A stretch of DNA of 32,000 nt from Thalassolituus maritimus (GTDB taxonomy: Bacteria; Pseudomonadota; Gammaproteobacteria; Pseudomonadales; Oceanobacteraceae): the NCBI RefSeq assembly GCF_040372045.1, contig NZ_BAABWH010000005.1. One strand, 5' to 3'. Shown here piece after piece: positions 2,172-29,939 of the stretch. Position 1 is the stretch's first letter. Each line of letters opens with the position of its first letter. The position numbers were made by a program, and so were the translations under genes. The notes under the pieces are model-generated. The model saw only the letters and a list, made by a program, of their open reading frames with translations. It did not search any database and had not been told where the DNA came from.

Positions 2172-2203
2172 ATTCGGAACCTCTGTGTAACTTGTTCAAC
2201 TGC

Positions 2204-4096
2204 TCAGAATGAATATTTAGCAGAAAGACTGATATTGTCGCGGTCTTTCAACTGGTTATATTTGCCACCCGAGAAGTTAGTGTAGGACACGTCAACGGAT
2301 GTCTGGTTCAGATACAGGAATGACACACCCAGACCAACGGTCAGACGATCATCGATGAACTGTGAACCCGGCTCTGGGCCGTAACCTTTGTCATAAGCAA
2401 TCGACATATTCGGCGTCATATTCACACCAGCAAATGCGTTGTTATACGTCAGACCAGAGCGCAGACGAATACCACCGGACAGCTTGGTCGTGTAACCATC
2501 GTCGGTACAGTAGTCGGTATTTACGTTCGCAGAAGTGCCACCATCGATACAGTAGTTAGTATCACCACCCGCGGCGAAAACACCGTCGTTGTTACCGATA
2601 CCGTAAGCACCTGAACGACCGTAGCGAGCGTCGTCGGTATTAGGCAGGTCTGGAATATACGTCGCACCAATTTCACCAACCAGTGCCAGACGGTCTGCAC
2701 CTAACACGCGATCGAAGAACATGATGTACGTCGACTGGGCCTGCCAGATATCGAACTCGTCATAACCTTCGCCAATTTCACCGTACAGGTTCTCTGCGCC
2801 ACCGGCTTCCTCAGCACGCTGCTGATACAGACGACTCCATGGCACACCGTTACCAGCCAGAATCAGCTCAAAGGCATTCCACTGAATCGGCATATCTGGT
2901 TTGTAGCTGATCTCACCAGAAATAGACGCACCGCTCGCGGTACTGCGAGCAAACGAGATACCGGCAATCTGAATGTCTTCTGGGTATGCGATCTGATACA
3001 GCGGACGATACGTGTTGTAAGACGCGTCGTCATTCACTTCCAGGTTTGGTGTACCAGTAAGAACGCCCAAGCGATCCTGATTGGTAATCACGCCGTTAAT
3101 ATATGGAAGGCGACTGTGGATATTCATGTAGTAGAAGCCGAACTCAGTATCACCGAGCGCTTCTGAGTACCAACGCAGGGCCACACCATACTGGCCAGAA
3201 TCACTTGGTTCTTCGTCCTCGATTCGTTCAGTCACAGGGGCGACTCGACCCGTCAGTGGAATACCACTGTCAATCTCAAGCTCGCGCAAGGCAAGAATTG
3301 CACGTTCCTCGGCATCACCACCCAGGATTACCGGACCACAGCCGTCGGCTACGAAGTCAACAGTAGAGAAGAAGGTGCCGCACGGATCGCTGCGAGTGTG
3401 ATCCCATTCAAGCTGATAGAAGGCTTCAAGAGTGATCTCACCGGTCAAACCGATAGACGTATACAGCATGTTGACAGGCAGGAGGCCCTCTTTCAGTTCG
3501 GCACCAGGCTTACGGAACGCAGACGCGTCCACCGGGTTTACACTGTTAATACCACCCTGAATAAAGGTGCTCTCACCCCAACTCAGTACCTGACGACCCA
3601 GACGGACACTTACAGGAACATAGTTGATGTCGTAGTCAGCCCAAACAAAAGCATCCAACAGCTCTGCACCGAAGCCTGCTGCGTCTTTCGTTTCATCATT
3701 CAACGGTTTGAATTCCGTATCCTGATCCATAATCGCGTGATCGTAGTACGCACGTGCACGGAAGAAAGCACCGTAATTGCGGTAACTCATTTCCAGGTCG
3801 CCACTCCACTTAAAGACGTTGGTATAGATGTCGCCTTGGCCGTAGTTTAGTGTGCCGTCATCGTAGTTATAGGATGAACCGTATGTATTCTCGTTAATCA
3901 CGCTACCATTGGAAGTCATGATCTGACCACGATCACGCTCTTCTAAGCGCCAGCCAATACCATAGGACAGAGTGTTGGCAAGTTGAATATTCAACTCACC
4001 GACGTTGTACTCAATTGCATTAACTGAGGTTACAGCTCCTGCCATGGCCAGTGCCAGCGGAGTCTTTTTAAACATTGAAATCATTGCTTTTTTCAT
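2204..4096 (-). CDS. DUF1302 family protein (predicted outer-membrane beta-barrel)
   Basis: Long ORF ending in ...ISLSAKYSF, an aromatic C-terminus typical of outer-membrane proteins. Signal peptide is MKKAMISMFKKTPLALAMAGAVTSVNA. Gly/Tyr/Asn-rich alternating pattern throughout. I prefer the ATG at 4096, which has a GGAG Shine-Dalgarno about 10 nt upstream, over the TTG at 4114 used by the ORF track. The gap to the DUF1329 gene is 32 bp. Confidence 0.8.
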   Translation of the reverse strand: MKKAMISMFKKTPLALAMAGAVTSVNAIEYNVGELNIQLANTLSYGIGWRLEERDRGQIMTSNGSVINENTYGSSYNYDDGTLNYGQGDIYTNVFKWSGDLEMSYRNYGAFFRARAYYDHAIMDQDTEFKPLNDETKDAAGFGAELLDAFVWADYDINYVPVSVRLGRQVLSWGESTFIQGGINSVNPVDASAFRKPGAELKEGLLPVNMLYTSIGLTGEITLEAFYQLEWDHTRSDPCGTFFSTVDFVADGCGPVILGGDAEERAILALRELEIDSGIPLTGRVAPVTERIEDEEPSDSGQYGVALRWYSEALGDTEFGFYYMNIHSRLPYINGVITNQDRLGVLTGTPNLEVNDDASYNTYRPLYQIAYPEDIQIAGISFARSTASGASISGEISYKPDMPIQWNAFELILAGNGVPWSRLYQQRAEEAGGAENLYGEIGEGYDEFDIWQAQSTYIMFFDRVLGADRLALVGEIGATYIPDLPNTDDARYGRSGAYGIGNNDGVFAAGGDTNYCIDGGTSANVNTDYCTDDGYTTKLSGGIRLRSGLTYNNAFAGVNMTPNMSIAYDKGYGPEPGSQFIDDRLTVGLGVSFLYLNQTSVDVSYTNFSGGKYNQLKDRDNISLSAKYSF

Positions 4097-4115
4097 GATT
4101 TTTATTCTCCGCAAC

Positions 4116-6968
4116 TTAATTACTTTCTAGAACAGTGGTGTTAGTGACGGAATAACTGCCCAGAATCAGACTGACGGATTGACCCAACATTTCCAGGAAA
4201 ACCGCACTGTCATCTGAATTCGCAAAGGTGCTGTGCGTTCCTGATGCAAATCGTACTTCTGCACGCAGAGGCGAAGACAGATCACCTACAGTCGTTGCAC
4301 TCGTTACAGGCTCAGTACCAAGAACTGTCGTCAGGCCTTGCGTACCAGCGAGAGGCGCGTAGGCAGTGTCGATACCTGTTGGCAAGCCCAACGCAGACGC
4401 GAAAGCGGCATATGGGTTGGTACCCGCATCAGCAAAGTAGTCGAAGTTTGGAACCGTTGGATCGGGCAGATATACACCAGCCGCTTTGAATCCATCCGGA
4501 TAAGAAACACCCGAGGCATCTGATGGCAGTGCATTACCACCTACCATATTAAATGCCACAACAGGTGTGTCCGTGGCTGCAAGCATCGCCCCTGCATTCG
4601 CAGGATCTGCTACATCTACAGCAGACTGGAAGACGTACATGAATTTCTCAAAATTCTCTGTACCCTGAGCCACACCTGAAGCAGCCAGACCACCCACAAC
4701 AACCGGACCAAAAGATGCAGAGTTTTCCAGCAGTTTGGTCAGGTTTGCACCGCCATTTGCCAGAATCACACCCTGAACCTCATTCAGGTTGTCATTCGCA
4801 GCAAGAACCGCTGGAGAGTTGTTCACCGCTGCATAGGTTGTCGCCACAATGGCACCCAGTGAATGACCAGCAACGAATACTTTAGTCTCATCGAGTTCGA
4901 GTGCCGCCCCTGCGGCAACGACAGCGTCGCTGACTGCTTCGATACTGGCGTTCAGGTTAAGCAAGTCGACAACTGCCTGACGTACGTTGTCACGAGTTCG
5001 GGTGAAATTCGACAGGTTAATAAAGGCGCTGCCAGACGTACCTGCATCAGTTTCGCCGAAGTCCATCGCCACACGGGCATTCAAGCTATTCTGATATACG
5101 TTGCCATGGCGTTCTTTAATGCTGGCAAAAGTGGTGTCTCCACCGCCAACCTGAGCGGCAATAACACCTGCCCATGGTGACGAGGTATCTGCACCCAGAG
5201 CGACTTCCATGTTGAATGGAAGCAATGCATTAGCTACCGGCTGACCGTTATTATCGCTACCAATCGGAGCAATACCGTGCAGAGGCAAATCGATCGCTAC
5301 CGTTGCAATGCAGTTAGCTGCCAGACCTGCCGAATAAGGTAGAGCGTTGCCTCGGCTGCCAGTGATACCGTGGACGTACATCACGACCGGCACAGAAGAT
5401 AAACCTGAACAATCCTGTCCGCCTGCTGCACTATAATCAGCTTGAGCAGGCATGGTGATCAACAATGGAGCGACATTGCTGCTTTCCAACGGCTGTGGGA
5501 AAGGATAACGGTAAGTCACGTTCGTCGTGTCGTCGTCGTCTTTGGGTGGAGTAGTACCCGCTTCATTTCCAAGAGCTCCATCCAATACAGCACCCACACT
5601 GGTATTCGCAGACCAGTCTGGGTCCGCAGCCATTGCTGCGCCAATACCTTCAGCAGACAATTCTGTCGTAAGAGTAACGCCGCCCAGGAAGTCCGGAAGT
5701 TCGATCTGACCCTGATAGTAGCGAGTCAACGTATCTGCCGTACCCAGGAATGTCGCAGGTGACGCGCCATTACCACCAATAACACCGTCTACAGTTGCTC
5801 CATCAACAACAGCAACCGTCCGTTCAGAAGGACGATCAACCAGATCGTTGATGCTCACAGCTGCTTCTGCGCCAATCAAGCTGCTGATATCGGCTGAGGC
5901 AATTGACCCGTAAACCTGTCCCGGATAGATGTCCAAAGCCTTCACTCCGGCTACCTGTTCATCCGTCACTGCAGCGAGCTGCGCGGGATCATTTGGGTTG
6001 CCCATGGCACTGGCAACAGCTATCGAACGCGCAACGATATCTTCTAACTGCCCGCCAGCGAACTCGTCAGTCAGATCTTCGGCAGCTTCCAAAGTAAGAT
6101 TTGCCGCAATGAACTGCGCTGGATTAGCGTAGGAGGTCAAAACGTCCAGAGAGCCATCTGTTGTGAACGCGTAGCTCAAAACAATGTTGTCTTGCGACAG
6201 AGACCCGCCACTCGCTGCAGCCAGGAACTGTGCAGAGAGCGCCTCCCAACCCTGTACAGCATCACGCACAGGCTGCAATGCATTTGACGCCAGCTCGAGG
6301 TTACTGCTGACTAACTCATACTCGGCGGATGTTGCAACTGACTCGCCTGCGGCGGACTGAATGCCATCAGTGAGTACCACAAGATACTTAGTCTGCTTGT
6401 CCAGTGGTTTCAGAGGGGTTATCGCCACAGATGGCGTTGCACCGTCGTCTAGCTCGACATAACGCGCAGTGTAGTCAGTGCCAGCTACAGGCTGATCAGC
6501 AGAGAACGGTGACGACGCTTCTTCTGCATACACGCTGTTCGCCAGAATCGTGTTGATATCCAACGCATCAATATTCGCGTTGTCATCACTGCTCTTCAGC
6601 TCGATCAGAAAGACCGACTGGCCGGCAACCACGGAGTCGGCGTTCAGAATACCGTTGAACGGAACATAAAAAGTCGCAGTCGTAGAGAACCCTGGCAGAT
6701 CATTAATAGCTGTTGTAACGGGTGGTGTCGTGTCTGCCGTTGCTGCTGTGCCGTCTGTCGCCGCCGCAGTGGCAAAGACCAGATCGGTATTCAAGGGAAC
6801 CTGAGAAGTCGCAGGGGAGAATATAGGTGTGATTCGGGACGGAGTCGCTCCATCAGAACCAGAGGTTACTGCGGTTGTGTCTACTTTGAAATCGCTACCC
6901 GTATTACAGCCCGCAAGGCCTGCGGCTGTGGCTGCGATGGCCAGACTGAGTAAAGTCTTCTTCACCAT
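4116..6968 (-). CDS. Large lipoprotein lipase / alpha-beta hydrolase (bacterial virulence-factor-lipase N-terminal type, VolA-like)
   Basis: About 950 aa. Lipoprotein signal MVKKTLLSLAIAATAAGLAGC|NTG. The N-terminal ITPIFSPATSQVPLNTDLVF resembles the Lipase_bact_N motif. The serine-hydrolase nucleophile elbow is VFVAGHSLGAIV. An alternative start lies at 6983. The stop is only 19 nt from my preferred start of the DUF1302 gene (4096). Confidence 0.8.
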   Translation of the reverse strand: MVKKTLLSLAIAATAAGLAGCNTGSDFKVDTTAVTSGSDGATPSRITPIFSPATSQVPLNTDLVFATAAATDGTAATADTTPPVTTAINDLPGFSTTATFYVPFNGILNADSVVAGQSVFLIELKSSDDNANIDALDINTILANSVYAEEASSPFSADQPVAGTDYTARYVELDDGATPSVAITPLKPLDKQTKYLVVLTDGIQSAAGESVATSAEYELVSSNLELASNALQPVRDAVQGWEALSAQFLAAASGGSLSQDNIVLSYAFTTDGSLDVLTSYANPAQFIAANLTLEAAEDLTDEFAGGQLEDIVARSIAVASAMGNPNDPAQLAAVTDEQVAGVKALDIYPGQVYGSIASADISSLIGAEAAVSINDLVDRPSERTVAVVDGATVDGVIGGNGASPATFLGTADTLTRYYQGQIELPDFLGGVTLTTELSAEGIGAAMAADPDWSANTSVGAVLDGALGNEAGTTPPKDDDDTTNVTYRYPFPQPLESSNVAPLLITMPAQADYSAAGGQDCSGLSSVPVVMYVHGITGSRGNALPYSAGLAANCIATVAIDLPLHGIAPIGSDNNGQPVANALLPFNMEVALGADTSSPWAGVIAAQVGGGDTTFASIKERHGNVYQNSLNARVAMDFGETDAGTSGSAFINLSNFTRTRDNVRQAVVDLLNLNASIEAVSDAVVAAGAALELDETKVFVAGHSLGAIVATTYAAVNNSPAVLAANDNLNEVQGVILANGGANLTKLLENSASFGPVVVGGLAASGVAQGTENFEKFMYVFQSAVDVADPANAGAMLAATDTPVVAFNMVGGNALPSDASGVSYPDGFKAAGVYLPDPTVPNFDYFADAGTNPYAAFASALGLPTGIDTAYAPLAGTQGLTTVLGTEPVTSATTVGDLSSPLRAEVRFASGTHSTFANSDDSAVFLEMLGQSVSLILGSYSVTNTTVLESN

Positions 6969-7189
6969 ACATATACCTGTCATGTGTTGTTATGGTTATC
7001 AGATGCGTTGGTACACGCATCCCTTGCGTATATCAGCAATCACCTGACTATAATCCCGTGGCGTCACACCCTCATCGCCCGAAAGTATGATTCGCCTCCT
7101 TAAACCGGGGCATTTTGTATCTGATCGTAATCAAACATAGTTCAAATCCGCCAACCTACCAAACCGAGGGATAGGATTTATACGAGCCT

Positions 7190-14221: not shown

Positions 14222-14239
14222 CAGTCATGCGAATGACTG
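14222..14239. promoter_or_regulatory. 18-bp palindrome in the motB-like / alkaline phosphatase gap
   Basis: cagtcat (14222-14228) gcga atgactg (14233-14239): perfect 7-bp arms with a 4-nt spacer. It occupies half of the 37-bp intergenic gap. No U-tract follows on either strand. Confidence 0.3.
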
Positions 14240-14246
14240 CATGGTA

Positions 14247-14921
14247 TCAGTAACGTCTTACAGTGACGACAACCCGACGATCAGCTTCACGTTGATCTTG
14301 AGTGGTAATGTCCCCTTCCAGAACCTTCGGACGACTATCCGCGTAACCCGATGCTTTAAGACGTTCTTTCGCAATTCCAGTTTGCAGTAAATACTTCACG
14401 ACACCGGTCGCGCGGGCCGCAGACAACTCCCAGTTTGAAGGGAATTCATCTGTCGCAATGGGTAAATCGTCGGTGTGCCCTTCCACTTCAATCATATGAG
14501 AGCCATGACTGACGTCTTTGATCACCCTTCCAAGCTCCTGCAACATAGGCTGCGCATCGGGCTTTAGCTGCGCCGACCCTGAATCGTACAGCGCCACATT
14601 TGCAAATTCGACCTGTATACCGCGCGGATCAAGCGTGACCGTTACCTGATCCGCCAACCCATTCTTTTCAACGTACTCGTCGAGCCCCTGCTTAATTTCC
14701 GTAAAAGGCGTCGCATTATTTTCAGATGAAATCACCTCTGCGAGGCCTTCTTTCAAGGACTCGATTTTTCCCTGATTTAAATCCGATACCGCGAGTATCA
14801 TCACGAAAAATGCCAACAGCAACGTAATAGCGTCAGAATACGTCACTAACCAAGAGCTGGAAGAATCATCAAAATTGGGACGACGTCGTCGCAATCCACG
14901 CTGACGAGATGCATGGCTCAT
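14247..14921 (-). CDS. MotB/OmpA-family stator protein (peptidoglycan-anchored proton-channel subunit)
   Basis: 224 aa. Single TM segment with the conserved channel Asp (SWLVTYSDAITLLLAFFVMI). C-terminal OmpA-like peptidoglycan-binding domain (VEGHTDDLP...SNWELSAARATGVVKYL...GYADSRP). Its start overlaps the stop of the MotA-like gene (TGATG). Confidence 0.85.
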   Translation of the reverse strand: MSHASRQRGLRRRRPNFDDSSSSWLVTYSDAITLLLAFFVMILAVSDLNQGKIESLKEGLAEVISSENNATPFTEIKQGLDEYVEKNGLADQVTVTLDPRGIQVEFANVALYDSGSAQLKPDAQPMLQELGRVIKDVSHGSHMIEVEGHTDDLPIATDEFPSNWELSAARATGVVKYLLQTGIAKERLKASGYADSRPKVLEGDITTQDQREADRRVVVTVRRY

Positions 14922-15724
14922 CAGAGTTCACCCGATAACACGGGGGTTCGTACAGACGGCTTAAGAAATGCGCTCAGCCTGTCCTGCATATACAGTGCCG
15001 TGCGCTTCTCACTCAACAGGACAAACCCCTCAGACACCAGCTGATGGCGGAAATACATGGTTTCCTGTTTTTCTGTAACCTGATTTGCAGCTGGCTTAAA
15101 AAATAAGTTCGACAGTAAAACACCATACAGCGTCGTGATTAATGCCAAGGCTAGGCCTTTACCCAAACCCGCCATATCCCCATTCAGATTATCCAACATG
15201 ATAATCAACCCGACTATGGTACCCACCATCCCAAAGCCGGGTGAGTACACAGCCATGGTATTCAATACCTTGCCTTCCAACGTGTGGCGCTGCCAGGTTG
15301 CATCCATCTGATCGGTCAACATAGTGCGGATATCATGATTGCTGTAGCCAGCTCCCATGAGATCCAGACCGGCGCGCATAAATTCATCGTTCTGCTCTTG
15401 CTTCGTCAAAGATTGCTCAAGCGCCACAATGCCACCTTGACGATAAATCGTACTCCACTCAACGAAGCGATCCGTCACCTGCTTGAGGTGTTTCTGTGAT
15501 GTTGGCGGGTGAAAGAAGGTGTACAGCATGCTGCGTAAGGCACGAATCACATCCATGGTGGAGTAACTGATTAAGGCTGCCGCCAAGGTACTACCAAACA
15601 CCAGCCCGAAACTGGAAACACTGATAAATATGACATGGTTATCAGTGGCGCTGGCCACTGCGAACACAAGGAGACCAATGCCTGCACAAAAACCAATTAG
15701 CGTACTGAATGAAAAACGGAACAC
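14921..15724 (-). CDS. MotA/PomA-family stator protein (MotA/TolQ/ExbB proton-channel family)
   Basis: 267 aa with a four-TM layout. Cytoplasmic loop has YRQGGIVALEQ (compare the RxxGxLALE region of MotA/PomA). TM3 is SPGFGMVGTIVGLI and TM4 is ALITTLYGVLLSNLFFKPAAN, each with the conserved Pro. GTG start with an AAGGAG Shine-Dalgarno 10 nt upstream. Confidence 0.85.
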   Translation of the reverse strand: MFRFSFSTLIGFCAGIGLLVFAVASATDNHVIFISVSSFGLVFGSTLAAALISYSTMDVIRALRSMLYTFFHPPTSQKHLKQVTDRFVEWSTIYRQGGIVALEQSLTKQEQNDEFMRAGLDLMGAGYSNHDIRTMLTDQMDATWQRHTLEGKVLNTMAVYSPGFGMVGTIVGLIIMLDNLNGDMAGLGKGLALALITTLYGVLLSNLFFKPAANQVTEKQETMYFRHQLVSEGFVLLSEKRTALYMQDRLSAFLKPSVRTPVLSGEL

Positions 15725-15766
15725 GACGATACTACTCCTTAACTCTTAGCCCCAAACCTTCAGAAC

Positions 15767-17701
15767 CTAGCTCTGCTTCACTTCAGCCAGCTCATCCATA
15801 GAGAAGCGACCTTCACGAATAACATCACGCATTTTTTGCACAACCTGACGACGGGCCGATTCAACCTGATCCTGTGCGGTCGCCGCTTCTGATACTTTCA
15901 GTTCATTAATAATCCCCGCGCGCAACTTGGCGGGCAACGCAGCCAGTACGTAACGTTTAAACTCAATAGACGTATTGCACAGCGACGCAGTTAAAATCGC
16001 GGTATCCAAGGTGCGTAACTCATTAGAAATAATGCGATCTGGTGTCCTGCTCAAATCAGCAAATGTGAAGTACACCTGACGTAAGCGATAGTAGGTTTCC
16101 GGCTTCTCAGACTTGAGTGTTTTAAGCATCCGGGTTTCTTCACTGGTGGTCATCTTATCCAGCATGCCGATTAATACCGACAAACCATCCGCCGTAATAT
16201 TCTCAAACGAAGGGACCGTCAATGACGCTTTGGCCAGGCGATCTGCAACATCTTTAAAAGCCGAGACGGGGAGACTCTCAAATTGTCCCAACTCGAATGC
16301 GATATCCGCCAACTCACGCGAGTCCAGTCGCAGAATAATATCCGCCGACCGCTGGGCCGGTAGCTGCGACATGACTAACGCCTTGATGCGTATATCCTCA
16401 TCCTTAATCAGGAACAGCACCTGGGAGTCGTTCAGTTTATTCAGAAAGGCAAAAGGCTGAGTATTTGAGGCGTCGTCCTGCTGGCGCTCAAGACGTTGAG
16501 AAAACTGCTCCATGCCTTCCGATAACTGCTCTTCATTCCAATCGCCTTCTTGTAGTAAGTCGTCGATCTGTTTCCAGTCTGCTGGCGTGAGATGCGGCGC
16601 CAGACTGGCAAATAAGCTCTTACCCATCGTTGCAGATAACGAAGCAACCTCAAATGCCTGCGCGCTGCCCAAGGCCTGTGACACCGCCTGCTGAAAGCGA
16701 TGTGGCTGCGACAGTCCCTGGCTCACCAGTCGTTGGCGGGATTCATTGATTCGATAACGGAGTGCTGCCGTATCGCCCTCCGACTGGCGGGCAATGCCAG
16801 TTCCCTTAGCCGTGTCAACGGGAGTATCAAGCCCGGGATGAGCTGTGGCCATTGAAGTAATTGGCTGATTGAGACGACGCCACAGTGCAAGGAACGCCAG
16901 CACGAGAAGCAACCCGACAACCAACAGGCTGGCTAACCAAATCCAAGGGGTGTATGCCTCCCAGAAAGAGAGGGGCGTTTCCTCTTTTTTCAGGTGACTA
17001 AAACCTGTTTTGACAATATTTAATGTATCTCCACGGAGTTCATTAATTTGTGCTTTGCGCGTCACCAGGTTTTTCAAAAACTCGATCTGTTCGTCTTCTA
17101 AGCCATTATCGACGACTAATGTAATCTCGAGTTTTTTAATGATATTGCGATAGCCTATGGTTTTCTCCGAGGGCTGACCGGCTTGCGCCTGTTGTTTTTG
17201 CTGTGCCACGTCTTTGAGCTGATCCGCGTAGGAGATAATCTCCTGACGCTCTTTCTCAAGCTGCTGCAGCTGAGAATGCAGCGCACGTAATTTCTCGTTA
17301 TTTTCCTTCAAGAGCGGCATTTCGCTGACAGGCAGACCAGGTAATTCTTCGAGGTCATCCAAATTATTGGATTCAATATCAGGCAGCGAAATACTGCCAC
17401 TGACTCGCGGTTTAGCCGGAAGTTGTGGAGGCTGCTGAGCTGGTGCTGGCTGACCCGATTCACGTACGACGGTGCGTGCGCGTTCAATGACTGCATCAAC
17501 CTGAATAATAAAGCGGTTATTACCGAGATAGGACTCAATATCCTGACGTAAGCGCGCCTCAAGGTCACTGCGAAAACGCGCCTCTTCTACCTCATCTTTT
17601 TTTACCGGCACCTCAAATGTGTCTTGAGAGTGTGCCATGAAGGGTAACATCAGAAGAGAGCAAACAAGCACCCAAAGATAACGACGTATTGAATTCATCA
17701 T
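15767..17701 (-). CDS. Bitopic inner-membrane protein with cytoplasmic FliG-like (middle + C-terminal) domains and a periplasmic coiled-coil / ring-building-motif-like region
   Basis: The layout runs from N to C in five parts:
- N-terminal signal/TM segment: YLWVLVCSLLMLPFMAHS.
- Periplasmic region of about 220 aa, containing a Gln-rich coiled coil.
- Second TM segment: WIWLASLLVVGLLLVLAFLALW.
- Cytoplasmic FliG_M-like stretch: VLFLIKDEDIRIKALVMSQLPAQRSADIILRLDSRELADIAFEL.
- Cytoplasmic FliG_C-like stretch: QVYFTFADL...LRTLDTAILTASLCNTSIEFKRYVLAALPAKLRAGIINELK...VESARRQVVQKMRDVIREGRF.
I prefer the ATG at 17701 or 17698, downstream of a GAGGGAGGG Shine-Dalgarno; the track start at 17716 is a TTG. 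Confidence 0.75.
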   Translation of the reverse strand: MMNSIRRYLWVLVCSLLMLPFMAHSQDTFEVPVKKDEVEEARFRSDLEARLRQDIESYLGNNRFIIQVDAVIERARTVVRESGQPAPAQQPPQLPAKPRVSGSISLPDIESNNLDDLEELPGLPVSEMPLLKENNEKLRALHSQLQQLEKERQEIISYADQLKDVAQQKQQAQAGQPSEKTIGYRNIIKKLEITLVVDNGLEDEQIEFLKNLVTRKAQINELRGDTLNIVKTGFSHLKKEETPLSFWEAYTPWIWLASLLVVGLLLVLAFLALWRRLNQPITSMATAHPGLDTPVDTAKGTGIARQSEGDTAALRYRINESRQRLVSQGLSQPHRFQQAVSQALGSAQAFEVASLSATMGKSLFASLAPHLTPADWKQIDDLLQEGDWNEEQLSEGMEQFSQRLERQQDDASNTQPFAFLNKLNDSQVLFLIKDEDIRIKALVMSQLPAQRSADIILRLDSRELADIAFELGQFESLPVSAFKDVADRLAKASLTVPSFENITADGLSVLIGMLDKMTTSEETRMLKTLKSEKPETYYRLRQVYFTFADLSRTPDRIISNELRTLDTAILTASLCNTSIEFKRYVLAALPAKLRAGIINELKVSEAATAQDQVESARRQVVQKMRDVIREGRFSMDELAEVKQS

Positions 17702-17712
17702 ATTGCCCTCCC

Positions 17713-18390
17713 TCAACGCAGGCGTGCCAGACTGGCACGTACCTGATCAAGCTCAGGATCGAGTTCGAGCGCCTGTTCCCAGCTTGCCCGCGCCTCTGGA
17801 AGCAAACCCATCTTGTAATAGATACTTCCCTTGAGGGCATGCGCTTGTGCTGAATCCGGAATCAACTCGAGTGCATCATTGGTCTGATCAAGCGCGTCCC
17901 AGTATTCCTTTTTATAAAACAGGCTTTGGGCCGAAAGGATGTGTTTCGTCATCGTTTCGCTACGACTGAGTTTTTCCTTCTGCTGCTCGCTGATTTTTCC
18001 CTCTGCATCAGCGTGATTTTCAGCCGCGATATCACTAGCAGTGCCTTCCATCAGTCCGTCGCTCTGATCTTCCACTTCAGCATGACTCTGCGGCAAATCC
18101 ATAACGAACTTCACATCAGAATCACCCGCATCAATGGTCATCAGAATGTCATACCCTTCACCGTAGCGATGGATGTGCATCAAGCCATGTTGCTTTTTGG
18201 CTTTCTCGACCACCTTCTCCAGTTGAGAGATTTCTTCAACCTCGGCCTCTTCTTCCGGTTCGACAGGCTTCCCCGGATCGACCCATGGGCTTGGGTTAAA
18301 CCCTTTTACCATCTTGTTGGTACGTTCGTGCGAGCAACCCTGAATTCCCAGAGAGACAAGGAGCACGGCAACTATCATTCCTGCTTTCAT
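17713..18390 (-). CDS. TPR-repeat lipoprotein with acidic linker
   Basis: Lipobox VSLGIQGC|SH. A highly acidic middle region follows. The C-terminus carries TPR-like helices (YWDALDQTNDALELIPDSAQAHALKGSIYYKMGLLPEARASWEQALELDPE). Its stop overlaps the downstream gene's Shine-Dalgarno/start region. Confidence 0.75.
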   Translation of the reverse strand: MKAGMIVAVLLVSLGIQGCSHERTNKMVKGFNPSPWVDPGKPVEPEEEAEVEEISQLEKVVEKAKKQHGLMHIHRYGEGYDILMTIDAGDSDVKFVMDLPQSHAEVEDQSDGLMEGTASDIAAENHADAEGKISEQQKEKLSRSETMTKHILSAQSLFYKKEYWDALDQTNDALELIPDSAQAHALKGSIYYKMGLLPEARASWEQALELDPELDQVRASLARLR

Positions 18391-18398
18391 ACTATCTC

Positions 18399-19454
18399 CT
18401 AGAATCTCAGACCAAGTGACAAGTCATAGCTCGCACCACCAAGCTTCCCTGTGTCTTCCAGACCAGAAACACTCGTCCATTTCGCTGTGCTTTCCGGCAA
18501 GTACGTCACGCCATAATCAATGAAGCCGTCTTTGAAAAAGGGGAATTCAAAACCAAAACGGAAGACCAGTGCGTTGGTGTCGTTAAAGAACGCCTGCCCC
18601 ATACCCAGATAAACTTTCGTATCGATAAGATCATCCATGCTGGGAATATCAGCGATGATCCTCCCTTCCAGATTTATGCCTGAGATATCGAAGTTTTCGC
18701 GATTAGAGAAATTGCGGAAATACTCGAACGCCAGGGTGTATTGCAACTGATCGTCGAGGCTCGTCGTTTCGCGGCGTCGGATGCCAAATACGGTGACGCC
18801 TTTTACCTCTTCACTGTCTGTACTGGACAGGTGGGCCCGCTCTGCAGAAATTCCCCATGCGCCGACAAGGAATTCATAATTTACGCTGTCAAAGCCCTCT
18901 ACTTCCTGTTCCAGAGTCGTTTTCTTCGAATATTCTTTCAGCCACAGTAATTTGTTGTCGCGGGCATCGACCATACGCAAGTTAATGGTGAATTTGTTCT
19001 GCTCGACTGACGCGTTCCAGAACAAAAAAGCATCCGCTCGCACATGCTGCCCTAGCTTCCGTAACGCCTGATTATCAACAGCGACATGGCTGACCTCGAG
19101 CCGGTCTTCTCGCATTGCTACCTGCGTAGTTCTGCATTCAAGACATTGAATGACTTCAAAACGACCGCTATCCAGCATGCGCTTCATTAGCTTGTTCTCG
19201 ATCATCAAATGAACTTGCTTAGGAATCTTACGGTGCATCCGATCCCCGTTGTGATATAGCGCTACCCGCTTCACGGACTCGGGAAGGTCAATTAACTCTT
19301 CCTTTACCAGCGTTTTGTCGTCATCCAGCAGCTGAGTAAAACCCGTGTACAAAGATGAGCGCATTTCGGGTGGCTCAAGACCGGGAAGAGGTGTCTCTGC
19401 AAGACTGCTGAGCGGTAATAATATTACGGAGAGTAACAGTAACCGTCGGAACAT
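18399..19454 (-). CDS. Outer-membrane protein: periplasmic LpoB/CsgG/FlgO-like N-domain plus a small C-terminal beta-barrel
   Basis: Signal peptide MFRRLLLLSVILLPLSSLA|ETP. The N-domain pattern is VALYHNG...IENKLMKRMLDSGRFEVI...ADAFLFWNASVEQNKFTINLRMVDARDNKLLW. The C-terminal ~160 aa contain about 8 amphipathic beta-strand segments (YEFLVGAWGI, LQYTLAFEYF, KVYLGMGQAFF, ALVFRFGFEF, ASYDLSLGLRF) and end in Phe. An 8-nt gap separates it from the TPR gene. Confidence 0.65.
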   Translation of the reverse strand: MFRRLLLLSVILLPLSSLAETPLPGLEPPEMRSSLYTGFTQLLDDDKTLVKEELIDLPESVKRVALYHNGDRMHRKIPKQVHLMIENKLMKRMLDSGRFEVIQCLECRTTQVAMREDRLEVSHVAVDNQALRKLGQHVRADAFLFWNASVEQNKFTINLRMVDARDNKLLWLKEYSKKTTLEQEVEGFDSVNYEFLVGAWGISAERAHLSSTDSEEVKGVTVFGIRRRETTSLDDQLQYTLAFEYFRNFSNRENFDISGINLEGRIIADIPSMDDLIDTKVYLGMGQAFFNDTNALVFRFGFEFPFFKDGFIDYGVTYLPESTAKWTSVSGLEDTGKLGGASYDLSLGLRF

Positions 19455-19687
19455 CTGGGCATCCTGTATAGGTAAAACGCGAATACAGAGAGCTTAGTTC
19501 AGTACAGTAGACTCAGTTGAGGCGGCGACATTCCAACCTTTTGATTAACAAATGTTTTTTATTTGAAGATAAGATGACCGACAATAATCGAACGTCGTTC
19601 TATTTCACGAACGCCATTGAAATGCCGCAATGTGGAATGCAGCGGTAGGGAACTGGACAGTTTCAGCCGAACGCCAAAAGAGGTACC

Positions 19688-19721
19688 GAGAAACGACAAA
19701 CCGACGCCATAAAGACGTCAG
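19688..19721 (-). terminator. Putative terminator of the pterin dehydratase gene
   Basis: On the minus strand: CUGACGUC-UUUAU-GGCGUCGG, an 8-bp stem that includes two G:U pairs. It is followed by UUUGUCGUUUCUC, about 48 nt after the stop codon. Confidence 0.45.
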
Positions 19722-19768
19722 CTTGTTTTCATTGGTAACAGATTGTCAGAGGTAAGCCGTTGATCTCG

Positions 19769-20065: not shown

Positions 20066-20105
20066 ACAACCTCCGGGAAAGAAGTGAATGAGTCCTTACT
20101 CTGAC

Positions 20106-20135
20106 AAAAAAGGAGAGCAATTGCTCTCCTTTTTT
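20106..20135 (-). terminator. Symmetric rho-independent terminator after the fumarase gene
   Basis: aaaaaa-ggagagc-aatt-gctctcc-tttttt: perfect 7-bp stem (20112-20118 / 20123-20129) flanked by A6 and T6. It starts 40 nt downstream of the fumarase stop. Confidence 0.85.
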
Positions 20136-20174
20136 CGTATCAGGACAGGTCAAAGAATCCTTAGGAGGAAATCC

Positions 20175-21683
20175 TCAGACCTCGGTCGCGTTGATTCGCG
20201 CGAACCACTCCTGAGGGCCCGTCTGGTGAACGGACTCGCCTTTGCTGTCTACCGCTACGGTAACTGGCATATCTTCGACTTCAAACTCGTAGATAGCTTC
20301 CATGCCCAAGTCGTCAAAGCCGACAACCTTAGCGCCTTTAATCGCTTGAGATACCAGGTACGCAGCACCACCAACAGCCATCAGATAAACAGCTTCGTTG
20401 TCACGAATCGCATCAATAGCAATCGGACCACGTTCTGCTTTACCGATCATCCCCAGCAGACCGGTCTCCTCGAGCACAGTACGGGTGAATTTATCCATAC
20501 GCGTCGCGGTTGTCGGGCCCGCAGGACCTACGACTTCTTCGCGCACCGGATCAACCGGACCGACGTAGTAAATAAAACGACCTTTCAGATCAACTGGAAG
20601 CTCTTCGCCTTTCGAAATCATGTCGACCATACGCTTGTGCGCCGCATCACGGCCAGTCAGCATCTTACCGGACAACAAAACTGTCTCACCCGGCTGCCAG
20701 TCTTTCACATCTTCTGGAGTCACAGTGTCGAGGTTTACACGGCGAACGCTGTCACCGACTTCCCAGCTGATTTCTGGCCAGTCTTCAAGCTTAGGCGCTT
20801 TCAGAGAAGCAGGGCCGGAACCGTCCAACTCGAAATGCGTGTGACGGGTTGCAGCACAGTTCGGGATAATCGCAACAGGCTTATTCGCTGCATGCGTTGG
20901 GTAATCGGCGACTTTGATGTCGAGAACCGTGGTCAAACCACCCAGTCCCTGAGCACCAATACCCAGCTTGTTTACTTTCTCGTAGAGTTCGAGACGCAGT
21001 TCTTCCGCACGGTTTTCTGCACCGCGAGCCTGAAGTTCCTGAATATTAACCGGCTCAAGCAGCGCTTCTTTGGCAATCTGCATCGCTTTCTCAGCCGTAC
21101 CGCCAATACCAATGCCCAGCATACCCGGTGGACACCAGCCTGCACCCATCTTCGGCACCTGCTCAAGTACCCAATCAACAATCGAGTCTGATGGATTCAG
21201 CATCGCGAACTTTGATTTCGCCTCTGAACCACCGCCTTTCGCTGCAACATGAACATCAACCGTGCTGCCCGGTACTAATTTCATGTGAATGATGGCTGGC
21301 GTATTGTCTTTGGTGTTTGCACGCTTGCCATCCGGATCAGCGAGTACGGACGCACGGAGTACATTGTCAGGATGCGTATAAGCACGGCGAACGCCTTCGT
21401 TGCACATGTCTTCGACGCTCATATCACCCTCGAACTTCACATCCATACCGATGTTGAGGAAGACCGTTACGATACCCGTGTCCTGACAAATTGGACGTTT
21501 CCCCATCGCACACATACGTGAATTGATCAGAATCTGAGCCATGGCGTCTTTCGCTGCCTTGGATTCCTCACGCTCATAGGCCTGGTGTACGGCATCAATG
21601 AAGTCTTTCGGGTGGTAGTAGGAAATGTATTGCAAAGCGTCAGCAACGCTCTGAATCAGATCCTCTTGCTTTATCACGGTCAT
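20175..21683 (-). CDS. Class I (Fe-S dependent) fumarate hydratase, single-polypeptide type
   Basis: 502 aa. The N-terminus MTVIKQEDLIQSVADALQYISYYHPKDFI...RPICQDTGIVTVF and the C-terminal beta-domain (GRFIYYVGPVDP...GPTTATRMD...AVGGAAYL) are typical of class I fumarases. Confidence 0.93.
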   Translation of the reverse strand: MTVIKQEDLIQSVADALQYISYYHPKDFIDAVHQAYEREESKAAKDAMAQILINSRMCAMGKRPICQDTGIVTVFLNIGMDVKFEGDMSVEDMCNEGVRRAYTHPDNVLRASVLADPDGKRANTKDNTPAIIHMKLVPGSTVDVHVAAKGGGSEAKSKFAMLNPSDSIVDWVLEQVPKMGAGWCPPGMLGIGIGGTAEKAMQIAKEALLEPVNIQELQARGAENRAEELRLELYEKVNKLGIGAQGLGGLTTVLDIKVADYPTHAANKPVAIIPNCAATRHTHFELDGSGPASLKAPKLEDWPEISWEVGDSVRRVNLDTVTPEDVKDWQPGETVLLSGKMLTGRDAAHKRMVDMISKGEELPVDLKGRFIYYVGPVDPVREEVVGPAGPTTATRMDKFTRTVLEETGLLGMIGKAERGPIAIDAIRDNEAVYLMAVGGAAYLVSQAIKGAKVVGFDDLGMEAIYEFEVEDMPVTVAVDSKGESVHQTGPQEWFARINATEV

Positions 21684-27127: not shown

Positions 27128-29026
27128 TTATTTCTGAACAGGCAGTCCCTGGAACAGGCGTTCAAGCTGCATATCAGCTTCATCAACACCCAACTCTTCC
27201 GACACTGTAAACTCCCAGATGCCGTTGAATTTATCACGGGTCAGCGTCTTGGCTTTACCACCGTCATCGACAATGGTCGGGCGCAAGAACACCATCAGAT
27301 TACTCTTCACCTGATTAACGCTCTTAGAGCGGAACAACCAACCCAGTAATGGAATATCACCCAACAGAGGTACCTTGCTCACCACTTCACGAACGTCGTC
27401 ACGGATCAGACCACCCAACACGATCGTCTCACCGTCCTCAGACAGAATCATGGTTTTAATAGAGCGCTTGTTGGTAATCAGGTCAGCACTGCCAGCAACG
27501 GTAGTATTGGATACAGATTCCGCTGTCGCTTCCACTTCCAGTCGGATCGCCTCACCGTCGTGAATGTGAGGAATCACTTTCAACGTAACACCCACGTCCT
27601 GTCGATCAATTGTGGTGAATGGGTTTGTGTTGGTACTGGATGCTGTTTGCCCGGTCACGAAGGGAACATTCTGACCCACAACAATCTCAGCTTCCTGGTT
27701 GTCCAGCGTCATGATGCTCGGAGTCGACAACAGGTTGGTCGACGAATTACTTTTCAGAGCCTGAATAATGACACCGAAATCGATATCGCCACCAGACTCT
27801 TTAAACCCACCAATGGTCAGACCCGAGCCTACCGCGTTGGCGTAAGTTGATGGCCCGCCCGCCACTGCACCGGCAATGGTCGCAAGGTCTGGTCCGGCAT
27901 TGTTAAAGCTGGTTCCGGCAACAGGGGAGTCCAGATCACCACGAACCCACTGCACACCCAGTGCATCGCTGGTGTCGCCTGTCACTTCGATAATTGCCGA
28001 TTCAATCAGTACTTGCGCGCGACGTACATCGAGTGAATTAACCAGTTCCTGTACTTCTTTAAGGATAGAAGGCTCAGCACGCACAACGAGCGCATTCAGC
28101 TCTTCATCCGCGTGAATACCAACCTCGCCTTTCACCTTGGCTTCTTCGCCCGAACCCGTGCTGCTACCCATCAGGTTCTTCAACATCTCAGCCAGCTTGG
28201 TGGCATCGGCGTATTGCAGACGAATAACCTGAGCACTGCCGCTGAAATATGAAGGCTGGTCGAGCTGTTCGATCAGACCGCGGATACGCTCACGCGCCGT
28301 TTTCTCACCCTTGATGATAAGACGATTGCTACGCTCGTCTGCCACAACACGGATACTGCCAGCGGTGTTGTTATTGTCCGTATTTCCCTGAGAGACCTTC
28401 GATGGATCGAGGCTCTGCAACATGGTCACAACGTTGCCCACCCAGGCTTCTTTAAGCTGAATAACTTCAAGCTCTTCAGATCCTGAACGGTCAAGGCGGT
28501 CTATGATTTCCTCGATACGATTAATATTGATCGCGTGATCAGAAATAATCAGCGCGTTGGCCGATTTCACACCGGCCAGATGACCGTATTTCGCCACCAG
28601 AGGGCGAAGGATCGGCACCAGATCCAGCGCAGGCGTGTTCTTGATCATAATGACCTTAGTCAGCAACTCCTGACTGTCGACACCCGCTCGCTCTTCAAGG
28701 CTACGACCCGCTTGCTTCACATCGTTCTGCTGGATAATCAGCGTCACATCACCGGCGGGAACCGCCGCAAGACCATGAATCTGCAATACCGACAGGAAAA
28801 GTTCATAGACACCTTCCTGATTCATCGGCTCACTGGAGAGCACGCTGACCTTGCCTTTCACACGCGGATCAAGGACAAAACTTTTCCCTGTAATATCGGC
28901 AACCTGACTGATAAACGCTTCTATGTCCGCGTCCTTCAGATTGATCTGCCAGCTTTCATTCGCTTGCAGTGGCATCGCCATGCTTGCCATCAATAACATG
29001 GCCATCAGCCAACGTCTGAGCAACAT
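27128..29026 (-). CDS. gspD: Type II secretion system secretin
   Basis: 632 aa with a signal peptide. N0 domain INLKDADIEAFISQVADITGKSFVLDPRVKGKVSV. C-terminal secretin core is VPLLGDIPLLGWLFRS....NLMVFLRPTIV. Its start overlaps the gspC stop (TGATG). Confidence 0.92.
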   Translation of the reverse strand: MLLRRWLMAMLLMASMAMPLQANESWQINLKDADIEAFISQVADITGKSFVLDPRVKGKVSVLSSEPMNQEGVYELFLSVLQIHGLAAVPAGDVTLIIQQNDVKQAGRSLEERAGVDSQELLTKVIMIKNTPALDLVPILRPLVAKYGHLAGVKSANALIISDHAININRIEEIIDRLDRSGSEELEVIQLKEAWVGNVVTMLQSLDPSKVSQGNTDNNNTAGSIRVVADERSNRLIIKGEKTARERIRGLIEQLDQPSYFSGSAQVIRLQYADATKLAEMLKNLMGSSTGSGEEAKVKGEVGIHADEELNALVVRAEPSILKEVQELVNSLDVRRAQVLIESAIIEVTGDTSDALGVQWVRGDLDSPVAGTSFNNAGPDLATIAGAVAGGPSTYANAVGSGLTIGGFKESGGDIDFGVIIQALKSNSSTNLLSTPSIMTLDNQEAEIVVGQNVPFVTGQTASSTNTNPFTTIDRQDVGVTLKVIPHIHDGEAIRLEVEATAESVSNTTVAGSADLITNKRSIKTMILSEDGETIVLGGLIRDDVREVVSKVPLLGDIPLLGWLFRSKSVNQVKSNLMVFLRPTIVDDGGKAKTLTRDKFNGIWEFTVSEELGVDEADMQLERLFQGLPVQK

Positions 29027-29919
29027 CAGTTCCGAGCTCCAAAACTCTGATTAATCATAAAACGGCTATTGCCGCGCTGTACTTCTATCTGGGCGCGACC
29101 TTCCTGCATCACCTGATCAAGCAACGCCTGATCGGAAGACGCATCCCCCAATTGCTGTCCGTTTATCGACAGCAACACATCACCGGGTTTCATCCCAGCT
29201 TTCAATAATATAGAACTGCCTTCAACGCGATATCCCTCACCAACGCCAACGGACTCCAATCCAAGTCCATCAATCACCACCTCCGGTGACTGACTGGCTG
29301 CTTCGCTGGCAATCCCCATGAAATCAGAGGGTCGACGTATCCGGCTAAATCTGTCACGCAGTTCCGTGACACGTTCTTCACGGACTTCACGATCTGTGGG
29401 CGCCGGAGCCTGAGCAGAGACGCCCACGCCGCGGTTAGAAAACTCTTCAAACTTAAGTGTCTCAAGCTTACCCGCGGTATCAAGGATCACTTTATCGGGG
29501 TACACACCAGCGAGCTTAGTACGGCCCTGAACCACGTCCCCGACACGGTAAAAATCACCTTTACCGCCCTTCTGCGCAATAATGGCACTGGACATCTCAG
29601 CCACACTCGATTGCATAACTCCAAGCAGCTCGAGGCGTAGACGCGTATCAGGCGCATCCACTTCCTGCACAGCCACCACAGGCTCAGCACCCACCTCACC
29701 AAACAAATGATACTGAGCGGTACTGACTTGCGGCGCCGCCTGAGAGGCCGACTTACCAGCAACAGGTGCTTTCAGGGTGATGGGCTCAGGCGCCAGGACC
29801 ATCCAGAAAATCGTCGCCAGAAGCCACGCAGTAAGCAAAGTCAGACTGACGTAGGCGAGACGCTTGACCCATTTCTGCCAGGGGGCGAGTTCAACAGCTT
29901 GATTCACTACTGCGACCAT
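29026..29919 (-). CDS. gspC: Type II secretion system protein C (with PDZ domain)
   Basis: N-terminal TM segment (YVSLTLLTAWLLATIFWMVL). A central HR-like region. C-terminal PDZ (LKAGMKPGDVLLSINGQQLGD). It sits immediately upstream of gspD and is translationally coupled to it. Confidence 0.75.
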   Translation of the reverse strand: MVAVVNQAVELAPWQKWVKRLAYVSLTLLTAWLLATIFWMVLAPEPITLKAPVAGKSASQAAPQVSTAQYHLFGEVGAEPVVAVQEVDAPDTRLRLELLGVMQSSVAEMSSAIIAQKGGKGDFYRVGDVVQGRTKLAGVYPDKVILDTAGKLETLKFEEFSNRGVGVSAQAPAPTDREVREERVTELRDRFSRIRRPSDFMGIASEAASQSPEVVIDGLGLESVGVGEGYRVEGSSILLKAGMKPGDVLLSINGQQLGDASSDQALLDQVMQEGRAQIEVQRGNSRFMINQSFGARN

Positions 29920-29939
29920 TATTAATCAAAGCGCTCAGG

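Follow-up and report, generated by a model that had tools for sequence, protein, structure and literature searches.

Five genes on the minus strand of a 32-kb stretch of the Thalassolituus maritimus genome (32,000 nucleotides, referred to below as the window) form a compact cluster at positions 14247-19454 and, on balance, probably encode an ion-driven rotor/stator machine that is derived from the flagellar motor and coupled to the outer membrane. This reading draws on homology and on predicted structures. The products are a MotA/PomA-type and a MotB-type stator subunit, an inner-membrane protein in which a part of FliF and the whole of FliG are fused, a tetratricopeptide repeat (TPR) lipoprotein and a putative outer-membrane protein. 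From the sequence alone the cluster had been described as an orphan envelope-spanning operon made up of a MotA/MotB stator, a FliG-like membrane protein, a TPR lipoprotein and an outer-membrane protein (the original prediction), and all five open reading frames (ORFs) are present where it had placed them (Table 1).

Predicted FliF–FliG fusion protein

The 644-aa inner-membrane protein had been labelled FliG-like. As far as the FliG domains are concerned the label stood: the claimed similarity to FliG_M and FliG_C is significant, both Pfam families being matched above their gathering thresholds (2.7e-11 and 9.3e-15, respectively; values of this kind given in brackets after a match are E-values). 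It was incomplete in that it overlooked the FliF portion of the protein, which became apparent when family profiles were aligned to the E. coli proteins. The gammaproteobacterial profile is colinear with E. coli FliF 231-549 (1.7e-15) and then with FliG 39-321 (1.6e-10), and the profile of the distant-phylum members with FliF 223-552 (5.2e-17) and then with FliG 6-324 (1.6e-33), all four figures being single-sequence E-values. By these alignments the 644-aa protein is a FliF(ΔRBM1-2)–FliG fusion, in which FliF from ring-building motif (RBM) 3 through the second transmembrane helix (TM2) and the FliG-binding tail is joined to a complete FliG.

Other sequence comparisons agree with this assignment. 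The periplasmic part of the protein gave weak Pfam matches to YscJ_FliF_C (0.0025) and PrgH. The combination of YscJ_FliF_C, FliG_M and FliG_C is the precomputed architecture of most homologs of the fusion, and FliG_N is precomputed in distant members. Among the PDB sequences the protein matched FliG of Aquifex (1.6e-13), Thermotoga, Helicobacter and Salmonella, and also both halves of an engineered Vibrio FliF–FliG and residues 407-484 of Salmonella FliF.

The structure of the fusion, like that of the 351-aa outer-membrane protein, was predicted with AlphaFold2 (AF2) as a monomer. The model of the fusion starts with a hydrophobic helix at the N terminus. Two β-α-β modules at residues 28-80 and 179-232 then flank a linker modelled with low confidence and the long helix 128-173, and they are followed by a TM helix at 246-278 and a helical cytoplasmic part of ~330 residues. 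Searched with Foldseek, the model matched full-length Aquifex FliG over 320 of the 321 columns of 3hjl (1.6e-10), Salmonella C-ring FliG and, at ~1e-3 with a probability of 1.0, the RBM3/collar ring of FliF (6sd1, 7bk0, 8zds and others). From the N terminus the predicted layout is a signal sequence or TM1, an RBM3-like domain split into two parts (~28-80 and ~179-232) by an insertion, an RGD motif, a TM segment (~246-278), helices resembling the FliF C-terminal tail, and FliG_N, FliG_M and FliG_C in this order (~346-640). RBM3, albeit split, TM2 and the C-terminal FliG-binding tail of FliF are thus all present. RBM1 and RBM2 are missing, since the FliF alignment starts at ~223-231 and is preceded in the fusion by just ~25 residues after the signal sequence or TM1; the protein therefore has no seat for the type III export gate.

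In members with an identity of only ~20-25% hardly any positions remain nearly invariant, and two periplasmic motifs, LPGLP and RGD, belong to these few. LPGLP, a candidate contact site, is invariant in the gammaproteobacterial alignment, nearly invariant in the distant-phylum alignment, and found in a similar form in 90 of 135 long family representatives. The FliM-binding EHPQR motif of FliG is lost (EDIR stands in place of EHPQ and only the Glu is conserved), as would fit the absence of FliM. The FliG equivalog model TIGR00207 scored 62.1 bits, short of its cut-off of 226.7 bits. Flagellar FliG, moreover, is soluble, ~330 aa long and bound to the FliF tail in trans, unlike this membrane fusion of 644 aa. 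A fusion of this kind could arise easily, since the fliF and fliG genes overlap in E. coli.

Stator subunits

The A subunit matched Pfam MotA_ExbB (1.5e-22) and can be aligned end-to-end with MotA and PomA of solved structure, including their four TM helices and the cytoplasmic torque-generating domain: residues 6-259 align to residues 6-253 of Clostridium MotA (8.9e-32) and residues 6-255 to residues 3-243 of Vibrio PomA (1.5e-27). The B subunit matched MotB_plug (1.2e-13) and has a TM helix with the channel residue Asp30 and an OmpA domain (6.8e-17). A plug and an OmpA-homologous anchor distinguish the flagellar 'FIT' stators from the Exb/Tol-like 'GIT' motors (PMC12505986). The TolQ model matched MotA at 0.076, and no ExbB/ExbD, TolA or TonB family was matched in Pfam or NCBIfam.

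The best NCBIfam models for MotA were those of MotP, MotC-type proteins, MotA and PomA, and the best one for MotB was MotD (1.1e-51). All remained under their equivalog cut-offs by a wide margin (166.6 vs 394 bits for MotP, 124.9 vs 341 for PomA and 175.9 vs 283 for MotD). Judged by these scores and by domain content, MotA and MotB are a stator of the flagellar (FIT) type and, since every cut-off was missed so widely, orthologous to no named flagellar stator.

The residues on which stator function depends had been said to be retained, and the alignments confirm it. With E. coli K-12 proteins as the numbering reference for stator and rotor residues, MotB D30 corresponds to the channel residue D32, and MotA P162 and P211 to the TM3/TM4 prolines P173 and P222; all three residues are found in 42 of 42 module copies. 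In the charged loop, R95 corresponds to R90 (37/42 copies) and E103 to E98 (38/42).

Predicted rotor–stator interface

The canonical contact pairs between stator and rotor are MotA R90–FliG D289 and MotA E98–FliG R281 (PMC7564593). The equivalent of the FliG torque helix was located at residues 589-604 of the fusion. K592 corresponds to E. coli FliG R281, N599 to D288 and E600 to D289, and this register was agreed upon by three independent pairwise alignments and by an alignment of 147 sequences including E. coli FliG. Since R281 has become K592 and D289 has become E600, with R95 and E103 of MotA kept, both pairs stay charge-complementary in the clade of the window (MotA R95–E600 and MotA E103–K592). 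The residue at the R281 position is Arg or Lys in 128 of 146 family members. In distant copies in which the MotA Arg is replaced by Gln the acidic pair of the rotor is also lost in two of three, an anecdote from too few copies to count.

Outer-membrane partners

The TPR protein has repeats in its C-terminal part that matched TPR_1 (6e-10) as well as TPR_11 and TPR_2, and it carries the lipobox LGIQG|C with Ser at position +2, as expected of the predicted TPR lipoprotein. Of the 15 module loci listed, 14 have kept the lipobox Cys, among them the distant L038, L040 and L042. Outside the repeats lies a conserved segment (KKQHGLMHIHRYGEGYD, residues ~65-80, pattern KKxHGLMHIHRYGxGYD) that belongs to no known family. 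TPR homologs in distant modules are up to 35% identical across 184 aa.

The 351-aa protein is predicted to comprise a signal peptide (…SSLA|E), an N-terminal α/β periplasmic domain similar to LpoB and TolB-N (residues ~60-180) and a small C-terminal β-barrel. A protein annotated from Thalassolituus maritimus is 100% identical to it. It belongs to no Pfam family and has no NCBIfam match; the only Pfam similarities were weak ones to LpoB (0.032) and FlgO (0.061; 13.6 vs 22.6 bits). Its family alignment shows an invariant CxEC at residues 104-107 and a β-signal-like end, LGLRF, which is LGxRF across the family with the terminal RF invariant. The barrel in the AF2 model (predicted local distance difference test, pLDDT, 76.7) resembles NspA (3e-6), the OmpA TM domain, Ail and OmpX in Foldseek searches, and the N-terminal domain resembles the LpoB C-domain (6e-5), GNA1162 and TolB. 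The model thus bears out the proposed combination of an outer-membrane barrel with an LpoB-like periplasmic domain. No FlgO/FlgP/FlgT, MotXY or PflAB structure was among the best 50 Foldseek matches. ORFs homologous to the 351-aa protein were found in distant modules (1.9e-10, 4.1e-8 and 5.5e-5).

Distribution of the module

A genome scan identified 36 loci in Thalassolituus, Oceanobacter, Bacterioplanoides, Oleispira, Bermanella, Oceaniserpentilla, other Saccharospirillaceae and Gynuella. In agreement with the synteny anticipated for related genomes, the five genes stand in the same order and on the same strand at every locus of these 36 genomes that is not cut by a contig end. The identity of the fusion protein ranges from 85% to 31% across the 36 loci. 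The position next to fumarase is mostly conserved among them, which argues for vertical inheritance of the module. The alkaline phosphatase gene was considered as a sixth member and rejected, as it adjoins the module solely in close Thalassolituus relatives.

The original prediction had not seen that the module extends well beyond the gammaproteobacteria. In a profile search of 1.84 billion representatives 185 clusters were found at E ≤ 1e-30. Among the best 150 of these 185 clusters, 135 are 530-780 aa long, with a median of 618. The named members come from Elusimicrobiota, Endomicrobia, Fibrobacterota, a Bacteroidota-labelled metagenome-assembled genome (MAG) and Pseudomonadota. The fusion family scored ≤1e-125 and true FliG proteins of ~340 aa at ~1e-38, and this large gap indicates a distinct family.

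Nine distant gene contexts were examined, and in seven of them MotAB and TPR genes are adjacent to the fusion gene. The order is fusion, an unannotated protein of ~350-390 aa that is homologous to the 351-aa protein, TPR, MotA and MotB in L037, L038/L039, L042, L047 and L048, and that of the gammaproteobacteria in L046. Elusimicrobiota, Fibrobacterota and a Bacteroidota-labelled MAG have all five components, differently arranged. The MotA, MotB and TPR proteins of a Fibrobacterota MAG and of a 2.17-Mb circular genome (ERZ26859072 ctg12719), in which the module has four genes, match the window proteins better than canonical stators do; the two MotA proteins are 35-39% identical to that of the window (~1e-55).

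Several individual copies deserve a remark. Module copies similar to those of Bermanella occur in L031, whose MAG bears the label Crocinitomicaceae, and in P0236, which is labelled Psychrobacter glaciei, and L031 shows gammaproteobacterial synteny with a fumarase that is 84% identical; both contigs are probably mis-binned and should not count for taxonomic breadth. In L046 (9150-9939) MotA is split into ORFs of 131 and 137 aa, which may reflect a frameshift pseudogene or an assembly error. In L041 (10001-13709) a 771-aa distant member of the fusion family is followed by a KAP-family NTPase in place of MotAB; the FliF–FliG scaffold may be reused there with a different partner. The remaining neighbours do not recur and are hints only: a class A penicillin-binding protein near the module in L037 (14518-16728), notable beside the LpoB-like domain; a MoxR–DUF58–VWA (Bat-like) set directly downstream in L040 (13496-16573); a 7TMR-DISM histidine kinase with a response regulator downstream in L047 (12295-14648); and a CsgG/LpoB/FlgO-like lipoprotein with a PilZ protein upstream in L038 (45-2652).

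Proposed mechanism and alternative explanations

In the proposed mechanism MotA and MotB would form a peptidoglycan-anchored, ion-conducting stator similar to PomAB or MotPS, in units of the MotA5B2 type. Ion flow through the channel at MotB Asp30 would make the cytoplasmic domain of MotA push the FliG_C torque helix of the fusion. By means of its RBM3-like ring-building domain the fusion would most likely oligomerise into a small rotor in the inner membrane, resembling the MS-ring and FliG ring. Such a ring is plausible in view of RBM3, the motif that builds the S-ring, and of engineered FliF–FliG fusions: these assemble into 34/35-fold rings (PDB 8z4d/8z4g; PMC11481574), and Salmonella FliF–FliG fusions are functional and support rotation (PMC4768692). 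Motion would then pass through the periplasmic insertion, with its LPGLP motif and long helix, to the TPR lipoprotein and the LpoB-like barrel protein, and proton- or sodium-motive force would thereby be delivered to the outer membrane or the cell wall. We infer the rotary character of such a machine from homology.

A more far-reaching version has a somewhat less than even probability. According to it, the module would be a free-standing ion-driven rotary motor unrelated to swimming and present in at least three phyla, in which a FliF(RBM3)–FliG ring is spun by flagellar-type stators and passes torque or force to the outer-membrane pair. To our knowledge FliG and MotAB of the flagellar type are considered to occur in flagella only. 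A stator phylogeny of 2025 takes the FIT stators, which bear a plug and an OmpA domain, to be the lineage of motility (PMC12505986). If true, the torque interface of FliG and MotA would for the first time be seen at work outside the flagellum, and the free-standing motor would be a new entry among the ion-driven envelope machines (Ton, Tol, Glt, Gld and Zorya). Its origin would be either that of an old sister lineage of the flagellar motor, one in which a type III export core was never present, or a radical reduction from the flagellar motor. A rotor and stator without a secretion apparatus, ancestral or derived, would bear on the evolution of the flagellar motor. It would also offer a natural minimal system for testing how the rotor–stator pair could have existed before or apart from the flagellum, and would lend itself to structural and single-molecule work. 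Direct testing is feasible because there are cultured carriers, namely Thalassolituus maritimus, T. oleivorans, T. hydrocarboniclasticus and Oleispira antarctica RB-8.

Several points weigh against a flagellar-motor-derived rotor/stator machine. The whole evidence base is computational, and the AF2 model of the fusion is of moderate confidence (pLDDT 73.7, predicted template-modelling score 0.33). The acids on the rotor side are only partly conserved: at least one acidic residue is present at 288/289 in 81 of 146 family members and at 288/289/291 in 110 of 146. K264 and R297 of FliG are not conserved in the family, and MotA R95 and E103 are often replaced in distant-phylum copies, so that the electrostatic interface is not universal. 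The distant locus L040 is without the outer-membrane gene, and L041 and L045 are without an adjacent stator. Finally, the host is flagellated, which leaves room for a role at the flagellar motor.

Three further points of this kind speak for a linear transducer, in which the fusion would act like TolA or TonB, in one or few copies and without rotating, by a logic like that of Tol-Pal, Ton and Agl-Glt. Pushed at FliG_C by the stator, the fusion would undergo a conformational change or move laterally, and its long periplasmic helix would hand this on to the TPR lipoprotein and to the outer-membrane protein. The parts parallel those of Tol-Pal/CpoB (a stator, the periplasmic helix 128-173, a TPR protein, a TolB-N/LpoB fold and an OmpA-type anchor), nothing that a rotor could turn is present, be it a rod, a bushing or an axial component, and the FliF β-collar is replaced in the AF2 model by the low-confidence linker and helix. 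This transducer, the strongest of the rival readings, is nevertheless judged unlikely. The periplasmic domain is homologous to RBM3, the builder of the 33/34-mer S-ring, and the fusion has kept the FliF C-tail and all three FliG domains, which build the ring in flagella. Moreover, Ton and Tol transducers touch their stator through a TM helix and not through a cytoplasmic torque helix, and similarity to TolQ is negligible.

The flagellated host raises a second question, namely whether the module serves the polar flagellum as an extra stator (MotCD/MotXY-like), as an alternative rotor subunit co-assembling with FliF/FliG, or as H-/T-ring-like scaffolds analogous to FlgO/FlgP/FlgT or PflA/PflB. 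Thalassolituus, Oleispira and Bermanella are polar flagellates, the best NCBIfam matches of the stator are MotD and those of the MotP/MotC type, and the 351-aa protein has its weak FlgO match. TPR and lipoprotein scaffolds are also said to be used by complex flagellar motors. Such an accessory role is considered quite improbable. One reason is the separation of the module from flagellar genes. As the original prediction held, nothing else flagellar was found in the 32-kb window by domain searches or tblastn. When E. coli FliE to FliR were used as tblastn queries against the window and 46 related loci (873 kb), no homolog of FliE, H, I, J, K, L, M, N, O, P, Q or R was detected and the FliF and FliG matches were confined to the fusion gene; flagellar genes adjoin none of the 47 copies. 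Upstream of the operon no σ28 or σ54 motif was found in 33 loci, apart from one σ54-like match at chance level (L009). The same five-gene set occurs among unrelated neighbours in Elusimicrobiota and Fibrobacterota MAGs.

The proteins themselves point the same way. Equivalog cut-offs for stator and FliG alike are missed by wide margins and the EHPQR motif is lost. The fusion has its own FliF-like ring module, only ~15-20% identical to FliF, which makes co-assembly with flagellar FliF unlikely. Thalassolituus swims by a single polar flagellum (PMC9807766), and in T. oleivorans the flagellar and chemotaxis genes lie in one separate block, TOL_2479-2522 (PMC6304351). Since this block is separate, the module is an addition to the canonical flagellum in these hosts, and the cluster stands apart from the canonical flagellar gene set, as had been surmised.

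That the module is a Zorya-like anti-phage system, using a MotAB-type motor as an envelope sensor, is very improbable. MotB matched ZorB models (1e-18) and MotA gave a marginal ZorA match (0.0014, over 58 residues), but the former reflects generic MotB homology and is far weaker than the match to MotD (1e-51). There is no long ZorA tail and no counterpart of ZorC, ZorD or ZorE, and the remaining three proteins had no PADLOC match. The module occupies a core-genome position next to fumarase across the whole family, with host-like GC content and not in a variable defence island. A Zorya or defence identity was rejected on the PADLOC result and the core-genome synteny. Core parts that are solely flagellum-derived, in a host that already has a working flagellum, might also be suspected to be what is left, in decay and without present function, of a second flagellar system that was lost. 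This is scarcely credible given five intact frames with translational coupling, channel residues invariant in 42/42 copies, retention across phyla and in 36 genomes with identities as low as 31%, and the inclusion of two non-flagellar partner genes.

Comparison with known systems

A search of full-text literature (8 million texts, with subscription-only papers not covered) returned no description of this system and no non-flagellar stator paired with a FliG-like partner. It had been claimed that no known relative in the 5:2 motor family has such a pairing, and the literature accordingly offered none. A proteomics paper on F. succinogenes naming MotA together with TPR was set aside, as it concerns ExbB/ExbD and not this module. 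The system is best classed with the envelope machines that 5:2 motors drive, as one assembled from rotor and stator parts of the flagellum, with a natural FliF–FliG fusion.

The module shares with the core of the flagellar motor full-length stator homology, including the plug, the OmpA-like anchor, the channel Asp and the TM3/TM4 prolines. It also shares FliG_N, FliG_M and FliG_C with torque helix and hinge region, RBM3, TM2 and the C-tail of FliF, and, in the clade of the window, complementary charge pairs. Unlike in the flagellar motor, FliF and FliG are a single polypeptide lacking RBM1/RBM2, and the vicinity has no genes for FliM/FliN, the export apparatus, the rod, hook and filament or the L/P rings. 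The module has two outer-membrane partners of its own in addition, there is no flagellar promoter, EHPQR is lost and the equivalog cut-offs are missed.

The closest precedent of the fusion is the shorter, stator-less FliF–FliG fusion of Chlamydia. In Chlamydiaceae, too, a natural fusion joins a shortened FliF (two TM segments, reduced RBM content) to a FliG-like part in the absence of a complete flagellum (PMC4768692). That protein is only ~330 aa long, with RBM2, one RBM-like domain and a FliG_M-like region only, and has no MotAB; it is thought to be injectisome-associated (PMC4768692). The protein described here, in contrast, keeps RBM3, the FliF tail and the whole of FliG including the torque domain, and is encoded alongside a stator in most loci. 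Engineered fusions (Salmonella deletion fusions; Vibrio FliFG, 8z4d/8z4g) likewise link FliF and FliG covalently at 1:1, but they are artificial, contain full-length FliF with RBM1-3 and work inside a complete flagellum.

Tol-Pal (TolQRA-TolB-Pal-CpoB) and Ton (ExbBD-TonB) are similarly envelope-spanning operons that bring the ion-motive force of a 5:2 motor to the outer membrane, and in Tol-Pal, too, there is a TPR protein, CpoB, together with a domain of the TolB-N/LpoB fold and a peptidoglycan binder of the OmpA type. The stator here is, however, of the flagellar (FIT) and not of the TolQ/ExbB (GIT) type (TolQ 0.076), its partner would meet the motor through a cytoplasmic FliG domain, and TolA/TonB, the TolB β-propeller and a Pal homolog are missing. 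In AglRQS-Glt, GldLM/PorLM, ZorAB and SiiAB a MotAB-family motor has also been co-opted beyond swimming with system-specific partners, but these systems have no FliG or FliF homologs (PMC9389320, PMC12505986), and their A subunits are ExbB/TolQ-like or of the Zorya lineage.

Operon structure and upstream region

The distances between consecutive genes of the operon are 8, 11, 42 and -1 nt. The original prediction had spoken, apart from one 42-nt gap and overlaps, of gaps of 8 nt or less, which holds for the 8-nt gap, the 42-nt gap and the overlap of -1 but not for the gap of 11 nt, a trivial slip. The predicted TGATG overlap between the motA stop and the motB start is seen in the sequence. The Shine-Dalgarno sequence GGGAGGG of the fusion gene, which had been placed inside the end of the TPR gene, abuts the TPR stop codon, and the stop codon of the 351-aa gene overlaps the AGGAG Shine-Dalgarno sequence serving the TPR gene. 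The ATG following GGGAGGG was taken as the start of the fusion gene because the resulting length matches that of the database homologs; an alternative start in the ORF list, TTG at 17716, would give 649 aa. A motif scan for σ70 consensus promoters and intrinsic terminators within the operon found none beyond the expectation from shuffled sequences. The GC content of the operon equals that of its surroundings and is host-like.

Table 1. Features of the five-gene cluster and its upstream region (positions are those of the window)
Feature	Coordinates	Strand	Basis or remark
Outer-membrane protein (predicted), 351 aa	18399-19454	minus	ORF
TPR lipoprotein (predicted), 225 aa	17713-18390	minus	ORF
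FliF–FliG fusion (predicted), 644 aa, inner membrane	15767-17701	minus	ORF, ATG at 17701
MotA/PomA-type stator A subunit, 267 aa	14921-15724	minus	GTG start, AAGGAG Shine-Dalgarno
MotB-type stator B subunit, 224 aa	14247-14921	minus	ORF
Periplasmic LPGLP motif of the fusion, residues 120-124, invariant	17330-17344	minus	Family alignments; aligns with FliF 'VPGAL'
Torque-helix equivalent of the fusion, residues 589-604, LPAKLRAGIINELKVS	15890-15937	minus	Alignments to FliG
Non-coding upstream region, probable promoter	19455-19768	minus	Alignment and motif scans of upstream regions, 33 loci
Conserved element AACATTTGTTAATCAA	19556-19541	minus	Upstream alignment
Conserved element CTGAACTAAGCT	19502-19491	minus	Upstream alignment

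The two conserved elements of the upstream region, AACATTTGTTAATCAA and CTGAACTAAGCT, are kept in several loci of the Thalassolituus clade, where the remaining spacer has diverged, and they may represent a regulator site and a -10 region. An Rfam search of the upstream region gave no significant riboswitch or other known RNA element, and a σ70 consensus scan of it gave nothing beyond chance.

Between the motB stop and the start of the alkaline phosphatase gene lies a 7-bp hairpin without a T-run (CAGTCAT-TCGC-ATGACTG, 14223-14241, minus strand), and the alkaline phosphatase gene follows within ~30 nt. Transcriptional read-through from the operon into this gene, which is outside the conserved unit, is possible.

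Neighbouring genes

The annotation of the window agrees with the neighbours named before, i.e. alkaline phosphatase, pterin dehydratase and fumarase, the latter of class I. The other genes encode a thiolase, a PurU-like formyltransferase, PpnN, superoxide dismutase, Maf and the type II secretion proteins GspN, GspC and GspD. The type II secretion genes gspN, gspC and gspD (secretin) at 27128-30719 on the minus strand belong to a cluster that seems to run past the end of the window. The 367-aa ORF at 20088-21191 on the plus strand is antisense to the class I fumarase gene (20175-21683) and was regarded as a shadow ORF and not as a gene. At 810-6983 on the minus strand lies another uncharacterised envelope gene set of this oil-degrading genus. 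Its three products are a LolA-like protein with DUF1329, an outer-membrane protein with DUF1302 and a protein of 955 aa whose N-terminal domain is that of bacterial lipases.

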